Positions 11,719 to 33,152 of a stretch of 59,852 bases of DNA are shown here, in pieces. The notes under the pieces were generated by a model that was not told the origin of the DNA, made no database searches, and worked only from the letters and a program-made list of their open reading frames with translations. Positions within the stretch are counted from its first letter, which is position 1. The number at the start of each line of letters is the position of its first letter. A program made the position numbers and the translations under genes. The stretch comes from a virus (lineage: Duplodnaviria; Caudoviricetes), in the IMG/VR virus record IMGVR_UViG_3300008107_000220, positions 1 through 59,852 of that record; one strand, given 5' to 3'.

Positions 11719-11793
11719 TAGCGGTGGCGAGATTTGAACTCGCACTGTATTGATTTTAAGTCAACTGCCTGCTGCCGATTGGGCTACACCGCC
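11719..11793 (-). tRNA. trnL: tRNA-Leu(UAA), short variable region
   Basis: Acceptor GGCGGTG/CACCGCT; anticodon arm GTTGA-CTTAAAA-TCAAT; T-loop TTCAAAT; no encoded CCA. Confidence 0.9.
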
Positions 11794-11832
11794 AATAAGA
11801 CCATCATAACTCATAGAGTTGTAGTGGTCAAG

Positions 11833-11906
11833 TGCTCGTTGTCAGGATTGAACTGACCTCTGCCGATTTATGAGATCGGTCCCTTCAACCAGATGGGTAA
11901 ACGAGC
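11833..11906 (-). tRNA. tRNA-CAU (elongator Met or Ile2)
   Basis: Acceptor GCTCGTT/AACGAGC; anticodon arm CCGAT-CTCATAA-ATCGG; paired G1-C72, so not an initiator. Confidence 0.9.
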
Positions 11907-11935
11907 ATTCGCTATTCGCAAATAACGAATAGCAA

Positions 11936-12007
11936 TGGGAATACTGGGAGTTGAACCCAGACTAAGCCCTTATAAGGAGCCCGCTCTAACCATTAAGCTA
12001 TACTCCC
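11936..12007 (-). tRNA. trnI: tRNA-Ile(UAU)
   Basis: Acceptor GGGAGTA/TATTCCC; anticodon arm GGCTC-CTTATAA-GGGCT; T arm CTGGG-TTCAACT-CCCAG. Confidence 0.9.
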
Positions 12008-31172: not shown

Positions 31173-31808
31173 TTAGACCCACTCAAGGGCTTCTGCGACT
31201 GTTGGGAATTGTTCGGAAAAAACTTTCTTACATTCCAGAGCAATGTCCATATGCTCTTTCTGGGTGCCATTTTTTTCTCTAAGTTGAATGTAATGAATCC
31301 AGTTGCGGCAAGATCCACTCATATAGATGCGTGTGGGCGTCGCTAAGGGCAGTACAAACCGAGCACACTCCTTTGCGACTCCTGCCTCCAGAAGACGCTT
31401 GTAGAGGTTGTTAGAGTGGGCAAATAGTTCAGCAATTTCTGCTTGAAATTTAAGTTTTACATAGTCACCAAGATCATCAGTAGAATTCTGACGATTCTTA
31501 GTATCTTGACGACGAAGATCTGGAACAGGAATATTTTCAGTAATCAGATTTGTATCAGCATAACGCTGGGAAAACTCTTGAAATGTAAAACTACGGTGCC
31601 TTAATATTTGAGCCGCGATACCACGATTTGTTTCAATCTCAAGAGTCATAAATGCCTGCTCAAAAACAGACCAATGATTGTGCTTAATACAATAACGTAA
31701 CAGACCTGCATAGTTTTCAGAATCCTGATTTGCTGGATTAGAAACTCTCGCAACATAGGCCATTGTTTGTTCTGCATCGGGAGTCACACTGATGAGTTTT
31801 ACTGTCAT
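31173..31808 (-). CDS. thyX: FAD-dependent thymidylate synthase
   Basis: HWSVFE, QILRHRSFTFQEFSQRY, KECARFVLP. Confidence 0.97.
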   Translation of the reverse strand: MTVKLISVTPDAEQTMAYVARVSNPANQDSENYAGLLRYCIKHNHWSVFEQAFMTLEIETNRGIAAQILRHRSFTFQEFSQRYADTNLITENIPVPDLRRQDTKNRQNSTDDLGDYVKLKFQAEIAELFAHSNNLYKRLLEAGVAKECARFVLPLATPTRIYMSGSCRNWIHYIQLREKNGTQKEHMDIALECKKVFSEQFPTVAEALEWV

Positions 31809-32480: not shown

Positions 32481-32504
32481 AAAAAAAGGAGGGTTGCCCC
32501 TCCC
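32481..32504 (-). terminator. intrinsic terminator of the peptide operon
   Basis: GGAGGG-GCAA-CCCTCC-T7 (GNRA loop). Confidence 0.85.
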
Positions 32505-32510
32505 AGTGAT

Positions 32511-32596
32511 TTACTTATAAAGCCACTGAATGTATGATGACAGTAATATGGTCATCAACGAATCGCAGCAGTTGAAGATATGATGACTTGTCCCAT
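32511..32596 (-). pseudogene. 28-aa membrane peptide gene with apparent 1-nt deletion
   Basis: Restoring one base after GCGATT gives MGQVIISSTAAI(A)LMTILLSSYIQWLYK*. Confidence 0.55.
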
Positions 32597-32694
32597 CACT
32601 TTGCTCCAACTAGTTGTGCTAGTTGTGCCTGATGACGACGCTCTTCTTTTTGCTTTTGCTCTTTAATGATTTGAAGGAAGTTAAGTTTTTTCAC
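32596..32694 (-). CDS. 32-aa basic helical peptide
   Basis: GTG start, SD AAGGAGG, overlap with the DUF4278 stop; (M)KKLNFLQIIKEQKQKEERRHQAQLAQLVGAK. Confidence 0.65.
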   Translation of the reverse strand: MKKLNFLQIIKEQKQKEERRHQAQLAQLVGAK

Positions 32695-32828
32695 TTATGC
32701 CCCTCCTTTACAAACTTAACACCACGATAGGTTTCGTTGTATTGTTGGGATTGTTGTTGCATTTGCTGTTGATATTCAATACGCTTTTGCGTATCGTACT
32801 CAACACCTCTATACACTACACGACTCAT
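32691..32828 (-). CDS. DUF4278-like small protein (45 aa)
   Basis: MSRVVYRGVEYDTQKRIEYQQQMQQQSQQYNETYRGVKFVKEGHK; twin YRGV motifs; SD AAGGAG. Confidence 0.85.
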   Translation of the reverse strand: MSRVVYRGVEYDTQKRIEYQQQMQQQSQQYNETYRGVKFVKEGHK

Positions 32829-32860
32829 TGGTTTTCTCCTTAGTTTTTTAGGTTAAAGAG

Positions 32861-33029
32861 CGTTCCTTCAGTCGGCTTTTGCGTCTATGGGACAAGTTTT
32901 TGGAGAAATCTGTTTGATCTCCCAAATAATATCATTCTTTGCTTGATTGGGAATGTCCTGTTTAAGAACTCTTCCTGCCATTAATTGTGCCTGTAAACAA
33001 GTAAGAATGATTGCTTCCATAGATGAACG
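32861..33029 (-). ncRNA. glutamine-riboswitch-like aptamer 2, with P2 loop expanded by an ORF
   Basis: CGTTCATCTATGG...CCATAGACGCAAAAGCCGACTGAAGGAACG; same flanks as aptamer 1. Confidence 0.7.
32868..33020 (-). CDS. 50-aa ORF nested in the riboswitch aptamer
   Basis: MEAIILTCLQAQLMAGRVLKQDIPNQAKNDIIWEIKQISPKTCPIDAKAD*. Confidence 0.6.
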   Translation of the reverse strand: MEAIILTCLQAQLMAGRVLKQDIPNQAKNDIIWEIKQISPKTCPIDAKAD

Positions 33030-33050
33030 ACCTATAAGTAGGTTTTGATC

Positions 33051-33093
33051 CGTTCCGAGTCGGCTTACTTCCGTCTGGTTTTCCAGATGAACG
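33051..33093 (-). ncRNA. glutamine-riboswitch-like aptamer 1 (glnA/Downstream-peptide class)
   Basis: CGTTCA-TCTGG-AAAA-CCAGA-CGGAAGTAAGCCGACTC-GGAACG: P1 CGTTC/GAACG, P2 hairpin, GGAAGTA element. Confidence 0.8.
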
Positions 33094-33100
33094 TAGAGGC

Positions 33101-33129
33101 ATTATACCTCGTTACGATAATTTATACAA
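33101..33129 (-). promoter_or_regulatory. sigma70-type promoter TTGTAT-N17-TATAAT
   Basis: Predicted start site falls at the 5' end of aptamer 1. Confidence 0.7.
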
Positions 33130-33136
33130 GTTTTTT

Positions 33137-33152
33137 TGTAAAATGTGATACA
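33137..33152. promoter_or_regulatory. NtcA-box-like palindrome TGTA-N8-TACA
   Basis: TGTAAAATGTGATACA just upstream of the -35 element. Confidence 0.65.

Follow-up and report, generated by a model that had tools for sequence, protein, structure and literature searches.

The window, by which we mean the whole 59,852-base IMG/VR viral record analysed here (estimated completeness 29%), contains a cassette of riboswitch aptamers and small genes that reads entirely on the minus strand (Table 1). Positions 32861–33029 are exactly the second of the two aptamers, and this aptamer encloses a complete protein-coding gene. Taken together, the elements are best explained as a ~615-nt phage transcription unit composed of a promoter, two glutamine aptamers, three small genes and a terminator.

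Table 1. Features of the cassette in the window, in the order of transcription
Feature	Position	Strand	Basis or remark
GTA-N8-TAC motif, NtcA-box-like (putative)	33138..33151	-	8 nt upstream of the -35-like hexamer
Promoter-like TTGTAT, 17 nt, TATAAT	33101..33129	-	read by eye from the sequence
Aptamer 1, unsplit, glnA-type	33047..33095	-	Rfam RF01739, 37.2 bits (gathering score 35)
Linker between aptamers, with hairpin potential ACCUA/UAGGU	33030..33046 (hairpin entry to 33050)	-	minimum-energy fold
Aptamer 2, 5′ half: P1 CGTTC (33029-33025), A (33024), P2 TCTATGG (33023-33017)	33017..33029	-	
Nested gene, 50 codons	32868..33020	-	ORF list, conservation, dN/dS
Aptamer 2, 3′ half, start: P2 3′ strand CCATAGA (32890-32884), then CGCAAAAG	32861..32890	-	
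Aptamer 2, 3′ half, rest: small hairpin AG-CCGA-CU, GAAG, P1 3′ strand GAACG (32865-32861)		-	
Predicted expression platform: CUCUUUA (32860-32854) pairs with UAAGGAG (32842-32836)	32836..32860	-	minimum-energy fold
DUF4278-like gene, 45 aa, two YRG motifs (IF17-like)	32691..32828	-	
Third small ORF, 32 aa, GTG start overlapping the previous stop	32596..32694	-	weak match to PHROG 545, E 6e-4
Intrinsic terminator ending the unit	32487..32504	-	7-pair stem with 5 G-C pairs, then T run

The promoter-like hexamers are absent from the output of a consensus scan because the first of them, TTGTAT, matches TTGACA at three of six places, while relatives carry TTGACT-17-TATAAT at the promoter position of the window. 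From this promoter, the transcript would start at ~33094, the first base of aptamer 1. Among 120 related cassettes, 114 have a GTA-N8-TAC motif in the 100 nt that precede the first aptamer, compared to 1 of 110 control windows, and the commonest distance of 58 nt is also the distance in the window.

Aptamer 1 aligns to positions 1–53 of the 53 positions in the RF01739 model, and its P2 helix is a short hairpin (TCTGG-AAAA-CCAGA). In aptamer 2, the P2 strands TCTATGG and CCATAGA are separated by 126 bases, and the nested ATG (33020-33018) is located inside the first of these strands. The segment CGCAAAAGCCGACTGAAG (32883-32866) joins the P2 3′ strand to the P1 3′ strand, the nested TGA (32870-32868) lies inside GACTGAAGG, and the 3′ half of the aptamer doubles as the last seven codons and the stop of the nested gene. 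The DUF4278-like gene starts at 32828, which is 42 nt past this TGA, and a strong Shine-Dalgarno site precedes its start.

The protein encoded by the downstream gene scores 18.9 bits against Pfam DUF4278 (PF14105), under the cut-off of 25.3 bits, and matches PHROG 5049 with an E-value of 3.7e-10. Of 16 such proteins from relatives, 15 have DUF4278 as their top Pfam family and 5 exceed its cut-off, and a YRG/DUF4278-like gene follows the aptamer in 231 of 269 split occurrences. Relatives also carry ORFs similar to the third small ORF at the corresponding place. Elsewhere in the window, a 211-aa ORF (31173-31808, minus strand) lies downstream of the cassette, and two tRNA genes occupy 11719-12007 on the minus strand (Rfam scores of 60.1 and 65.3 bits).

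Conservation and recurrence of the nested gene

A preliminary description of this DNA, made from its letters alone, had put forward the open reading frame inside aptamer 2 as a complete gene, and our data supports a conserved protein gene under purifying selection. We performed a protein-guided scan of IMG/VR that returned 154 relatives, of which 80 loci were kept; the conservation set consisted of 83 loci and the window. The nested ORF is intact in all 84 sequences, which encode 39 protein variants. Across 41 distinct 50-codon sequences, the entropies at codon positions 1, 2 and 3 are 0.32, 0.15 and 0.72, respectively, and the median pairwise dN/dS over codons 2–44 is 0.14 (810 pairs, mean dS of 0.89). 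BLAST against phage genomes located the full stretch in three Synechococcus myoviruses from fresh water (DSL-LC02, S-SRM01 and DSL-LC03), whose alignment shows changes at third codon positions. The records of DSL-LC02 and S-SRM01 list the nested ORF as a hypothetical protein, and that of DSL-LC03 has no annotation for it; S-SRM01 also has, downstream of the cassette, a gene labelled thymidylate synthase. Metatranscriptome contigs from four runs in four studies span 32855-33073 with 0–1 mismatches, which indicates presence in RNA libraries where DNA carry-over is possible.

A profile search of 1.84 billion cluster representatives gave 44 matches at E ≤ 0.001, and the resulting family has ~46–60 residues and two invariant cysteines. 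PHROG 504 is matched by 32 of 38 aligned relatives (best E-value of 2.4e-9); the window's protein alone reaches an E-value of 0.022 and is linked to these relatives by the profile search. In Pfam, there was no match for the nested protein or for its 38 aligned relatives. The AlphaFold2 model (47-row alignment) is a two-helix hairpin with helices at residues 8–20 and 25–38 (pLDDT of 85.6), for which Foldseek found nothing in the PDB at E ≤ 0.001, and the ESM Atlas had no usable match for the protein. A weak match (E-value of 8e-3) connects the nested protein to the N-terminus of a 223-aa protein, S-CRM01 g160. At one locus (L086:1-340), a homologue of the nested gene stands by itself outside an aptamer, as the last gene of a DUF4278 operon and immediately ahead of the terminator. 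We also considered a leader peptide or sensor ORF of the mgtL type, which does not fit the dN/dS of 0.14, the two invariant cysteines, the confident two-helix model or the free-standing homologue.

A scan of IMG/VR with the 3′ half alone (ACGCAAA-N4-GACTGAAGGAACG) gave at least 120 matches, listed in unranked order. Among the 120 matches listed, 68 are split by an ORF, with CGTTCA located 143–200 nt upstream, 47 are unsplit, with CGTTCA located 17–27 nt upstream, and 5 loci lie too near a contig end for assignment. The preliminary description had placed the start codon in the P2 5′ strand and the stop in the aptamer's 3′ core, and both placements hold well beyond the window. In every one of the 68 split loci listed, the ATG is in or adjoins the P2 5′ strand, 9, 10 or 11 nt after the C of CGTTCA (32, 21 and 15 loci, respectively), and in 67 of them the stop is the core UGA of GACUGAAGG, the remaining ORF ending in the P2 3′ strand. 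Each of the 68 products contains at least two cysteines, and CGTTCA is kept in all 68 loci despite its position outside the ORF. A Shine-Dalgarno-like motif at -16 to -4 of the inner ATG was found in none of the 68 split loci listed. The sequences fetched by protein similarity all contain CGTTCATCTATG, the 5′ half of aptamer 2 (84 of 84). The split layout is therefore beyond chance, as shown by an ORF that is intact in 84 of 84 sequences, by its coding evolution and by its recurrence in 68 of the 120 matches listed, and it is widespread in T4-like cyanophages rather than unique to the window.

The layout is also present in isolates. A marine member of the nested family matches 66 phage records. 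In S-SSM4, CGTTCATCCCATG...CCATGGGACGCAAACGACTAAAGGAACG flank the nested gene CYXG_00159, and the same layout contains CPPG_00115 in P-RSM1 and Syn19_187 in Syn19, with all three genes annotated as hypothetical proteins. Within a collection of 185,579 prokaryotic species, the 3′-half pattern appears in six contigs, one of which matches an IMG/VR viral contig in length and coordinates; because all six are metagenome-assembled or single-cell contigs, the 3′-half aptamer variant is essentially viral.

Individual relatives carry further variants of the cassette. The 3′ half has decayed and is followed by a terminator at locus L109, the nested ORF is frameshifted at L208, and an 8-codon in-frame insertion precedes the aptamer-encoded tail at L205-L207. 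The cassettes of L151 and L200 have no aptamer 1. At L092 and L093, the core UGA has been lost and the ORF extends to the next Shine-Dalgarno site. In the region corresponding to window positions 32884-33047, an RNA-library contig of a close relative has a 26-nt hairpin that replaces the 162 nt holding the ORF, and thus presents an unsplit aptamer 2 with flanks as in the window.

Aptamer 1, which is unsplit in the window, is itself split in many relatives by a paralogous ORF. At L014 (1236-1490), ACGTTCATCCTATG is followed by a 68-codon ORF and then by ATAGGACGGAAGTA..., and the second family is also found in Syn19 (L336:100-345), where Syn19_186 is a member. We collected 38 distinct proteins of 62–69 aa, and 11 of 15 representatives match PHROG 6471. 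Their ATG is again located at the end of the P2 5′ strand, and marine members stop at a UAA inside CGCAAGUAAG. When compared with hhalign, the two nested families align cysteine to cysteine (probability of 85.6%, E-value of 5.5e-6). These similarities suggest that the aptamer-plus-gene module was duplicated.

Class assignment and the long-range P2 helix

The preliminary description had warned that covariance searches could miss a split aptamer, and this was borne out in the window and at five other loci. The RF01739 model gives no match to aptamer 2 even at E-values up to 10 (361-nt stretch; gathering score of 35), likely because of the 125-nt insert, and Rfam gives none for the split aptamers of L334, L335, L336, L087 and L259, while their unsplit neighbours are found. 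PreQ1 (17.5 bits), freshwater-2 (15.2 bits) and two lncRNA models scored far below their gathering scores and were taken as chance matches. A covariance model built from 38 natural unsplit aptamers assigned 29 bits to aptamer 1 and 26 bits to the 3′ half of aptamer 2, which is the second-best match of the window (E-value of 6.4e-5, the next match having 11.2 bits), although this model does not span the insert and joins the 3′ half to a false 5′ half close by.

The elements of a glutamine aptamer can nevertheless be followed across the insert. The long-range P2 forms a helix directly after CGUUCA and before the CG(G/C)AA junction, and the 3′ core GAAGGAACGC is present at 32869-32860. The junction itself is CGCAAAAG instead of the consensus CGGAAGUA; CGCAAA junctions of the CGCAAAAG type are also found in 38 natural unsplit aptamers, and the one from S-CREM1 scores 33.5 bits against RF01739. 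On these sequence features, the element appears to be a known riboswitch class, that of glutamine, in a coding form of which we found no published account. Its lack of an Rfam match and its non-consensus junction would also be expected if the insertion had destroyed aptamer 2, with nothing left of the two halves beyond their role as start region and final codons of the gene inserted there. We judge such a relic to be very improbable, as the P2 helix, the synonymous sites and the 5′ flank all argue against it.

The preliminary description had drawn P2 as a helix closing over ~125 nt, and we found that compensatory changes preserve its pairing across 145–200 nt in many lineages. Base pairs were counted with the strands anchored on CGTTCA and CG(C/G)AA, as a MAFFT alignment of 45 split aptamers misregistered the P2 5′ strand. 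Pairs 1–5 of P2 are canonical in 99–100% of 82 distinct flank pairs, and this fraction drops to 29–55% when the 3′ partner is slid by 1–3 positions. Each of pairs 3, 4 and 5 occurs as four canonical pair types, and the mean contiguous helix has 6.25 pairs, compared to 3.93 after permutation (2000 permutations, maximum of 4.77). The co-varying flanks are TCTAT/ATAGA (window clade), TCCTC/GAGGA, TCCCA/TGGGA, TCCTTA/TAAGGA, TCCCTA/TAGGGA and TCTTAT/ATAAGA. Inside the window's own clade both P1 and P2 are invariant, and therefore the covariation signal comes from comparison between clades. In the L087 lineage, the junction is the canonical CGGAAGUA and P2 consists of 10 bp whose sequence is unrelated (TACAGTCAAC/GTTGACTGTA); the ORF enclosed by this helix is homologous, has 55 codons and stops immediately ahead of the stem.

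The nested gene bears a second trace of the same constraint. Third-position entropy is 0.25 over codons 45–50, which overlap the aptamer, compared to 0.97 over codons 2–44 (96 distinct sequences), and synonymous sites are nearly frozen only at the codons that overlap the aptamer's 3′ half. As judged from these substitution patterns, the long-range P2 is under selection. A destroyed aptamer would account neither for the maintained helix, nor for the frozen synonymous sites, nor for a CGTTCA that lies outside the ORF and is yet kept in all 68 split loci listed.

The P1 strands CGUUC and GAACG are both present in the window and are kept without variation in all relatives; because P1 never varies, its partner is unreadable by covariation. 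The two aptamers could accordingly be drawn in another way, as an interlocked pair in which the first CGUUC joins the last GAACG and the inner GAACG joins the second CGUUC, forming one large junction with the ORF also enclosed via P2. Several details are consistent with this topology. GAAG is missing before the GGAACG of unit 1, and CGGAAGUA is replaced by CGCAAA in unit 2, so that either unit lacks a consensus element present in the other. The linker between the aptamers, measured from GGAACG to CGTTCA, is 3–6 nt in 187 of 194 distinct cassettes and 20–21 nt with a hairpin in the other 7, including the window (21 nt), and both forms would suit an inner helix that is closed. The minimum-energy fold contains this inter-aptamer helix (GAACG of unit 1 with CGUUC of unit 2) and is more stable than an enforced side-by-side fold by 2.3 kcal/mol. 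The invariance of P1 means, however, that no covariation distinguishes the two topologies, single split aptamers without unit 1 exist (L151 and L200), and unsplit units of the CGCAAA type reach 33.5 bits on their own. We consider the interlocked topology somewhat unlikely. What it changes is the fold and not the nesting, and it can hold together with the main reading set out below.

Proposed competition of translation and glutamine binding on one RNA

The minimum-energy fold of the leader (z-score of -3.74) retains both the long-range P2 and the CUCUUUA/UAAGGAG pairing, a predicted hairpin located directly 3′ of P1. In this prediction, the Shine-Dalgarno site of the DUF4278-like gene has an unpaired probability of 0.01, and the region of the inner ATG is ~40% unpaired until the 3′ half has been transcribed. 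As described in PMC6212724, the Synechocystis gifB leader follows the same logic, whereby glutamine frees the ribosome-binding site, and DUF4278 is linked there to the glutamine-synthetase inactivating factor IF17.

Our main reading is that folding of the glutamine-bound aptamer 2 and translation of the inner gene compete, which would place the inner and outer genes under opposite glutamine control; drawing on the predicted folds and the gifB analogy, we lean slightly towards it. When folded and bound to glutamine, aptamer 2 would hide the initiation region of the inner gene, because the P2 5′ strand carries the start codon at its 3′ end, with no Shine-Dalgarno site. Ribosomes on the inner gene would in turn hold the aptamer halves apart, as they would run through the 3′ core to the UGA. 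If the gifB leader is a guide, the Shine-Dalgarno site of the DUF4278 (IF17-like) gene would become accessible on glutamine binding. The inner protein would then probably be produced at low glutamine and the DUF4278 protein at high glutamine. Counting against this reading, a first ribosome may load whatever the glutamine level, since transcription has to proceed for ~150 nt past the ATG before it reaches the 3′ half, and the ATG region is predicted to be ~40% unpaired over this interval.

Alternatively, the gene could be a passenger. The P2 loop would permit any insert, much as group I introns accommodate ORFs in their peripheral loops, the gene would merely borrow the promoter of the riboswitch, and the aptamer would refold between ribosomes, with no regulatory link between the two. 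The coexistence of split and unsplit forms with near-identical flanks, including the unsplit aptamer 2 in the RNA-library contig of the close relative, is what such an insertion would leave behind, as is the free-standing homologue at the operon end in L086. Moreover, where phage genomes are compact, a loop would be filled by its ORF right up to the stem, and consequently the geometry alone is no proof of regulation. It is harder to reconcile with a mere passenger that the ATG offset is fixed at 9–11 nt with no Shine-Dalgarno-like motif in all 68 split loci listed, and that the second ORF family repeats this geometry in aptamer 1. With the ATG so placed and no Shine-Dalgarno site, initiation must melt P1 and P2, and thus full independence of gene and aptamer is physically unlikely. 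Overall, we find the absence of any regulatory link unlikely.

The position of the stop codon raises a different relationship between the two genes. The anti-Shine-Dalgarno stretch CUCUUUA lies 10–16 nt past the UGA, probably within reach of a ribosome terminating there; by partly covering this stretch, such a ribosome would favour coupling over exclusion. By stopping in the core, the ribosome would melt the anti-Shine-Dalgarno hairpin, the inner gene would turn on the DUF4278 gene, and the aptamer would gate the whole cassette by hiding the inner ATG. The short distance from the UGA to CUCUUUA and the predicted default closure of the Shine-Dalgarno site are in line with such coupling. So are the relatives without the UGA, as the ORF of S-SRM01 continues to a stop in the anti-Shine-Dalgarno stretch and those of L092 and L093 end next to the following Shine-Dalgarno site. 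Under coupling, however, the DUF4278 gene would rise at low glutamine, which is opposite to the gifB logic in PMC6212724, and the sequence after P1 in marine relatives differs from that of the window. We regard coupling as distinctly improbable.

Returning to competition between aptamer folding and inner-gene translation, a broader version of this model may be put forward tentatively, as a possibility that falls short of being probable. The cyanomyovirus cassettes would then constitute a class of coding riboswitches, in which a ligand-dependent aptamer helix surrounds a gene and places inner and outer genes under opposite control, and would act as a three-output glutamine switch with which the phage retunes host nitrogen metabolism while it infects the cell. 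If this is true, the three outputs would be the paralogous two-cysteine mini-protein genes in both aptamers and the DUF4278/IF17-like gene.

The layout matters for how riboswitches are searched and annotated. Riboswitch aptamers are treated as compact non-coding domains, and search models assume so; here, the members of a validated riboswitch class commonly occur in nature with one helix extended across an entire gene, whose start and stop are shared with the sensor core. Because all the split aptamers tested were missed, censuses of glutamine riboswitches in phages undercount them. PHROG 504 (Syn19_187) and PHROG 6471 (Syn19_186), two gene families that have carried the label hypothetical ever since T4-like cyanophages were first sequenced, can now be placed in a regulatory setting linked to the nitrogen status of the host. 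The layout is also a natural test case for translation versus ligand sensing on one RNA, for which cultured phage-host pairs are usable.

Comparison with known systems

The preliminary description knew of no account of this architecture, and our full-text literature searches likewise turned up no report of a glutamine aptamer with an ORF in it, a scope that included PMC6212724, PMC2864571, PMC9964418, PMC12379486, PMC9004378 and PMC7760959 and that did not extend to Ames and Breaker 2011 and Ren et al. 2015. According to PMC6212724 and PMC2864571, the type 1 glutamine riboswitch (RF01739) is found alone or in tandem upstream of cyanobacterial gifB/DUF4278 genes. The cassette shares with RF01739 the core CGUUCA...GAAGGAACGC, the tandem arrangement, the downstream DUF4278-type gene and a stretch after P1 that pairs with the ribosome-binding site. 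It differs in that the first hairpin of aptamer 2 is a long-range helix around a protein gene, aptamer nucleotides supply the start and last codons of that gene, unit 2 has CGCAAA at its junction instead of CGGAAGUA, and the 3′-half variant is almost confined to viral contigs.

The glutamine-II riboswitch (Downstream-peptide motif, RF01704) also has CGUUCA, a hairpin and CGCA, and unsplit relatives of the cassette score 15–32 bits against its model. All of these scores are under the gathering score of 33, however, and the S-CREM1 aptamer scores 33.5 bits with the glnA model compared to 15.3 bits with RF01704.

Two further systems combine structured RNA with coding sequence. Group I and group II introns are ribozymes that carry ORFs in their peripheral loops, and these ORFs encode mobile endonucleases or maturases. 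As in the cassette, their long-range helices close around a coding insert, and forms with and without the insert exist among relatives. The RNA of the cassette belongs to a ligand-sensor class and not to a ribozyme class, and no group I or group II intron is known in which the start and stop codons of the ORF also form part of the catalytic core. The Salmonella mgtA and mgtCBR leaders contain embedded short ORFs, such as mgtL, whose sensor peptides lie between alternative stems. The likeness is an ORF within a ligand-sensing leader, and translation there alters the fold of the RNA. Unlike in those leaders, the ORF of the cassette belongs to a conserved protein family under purifying selection, lies inside a single aptamer helix and is also found free-standing.
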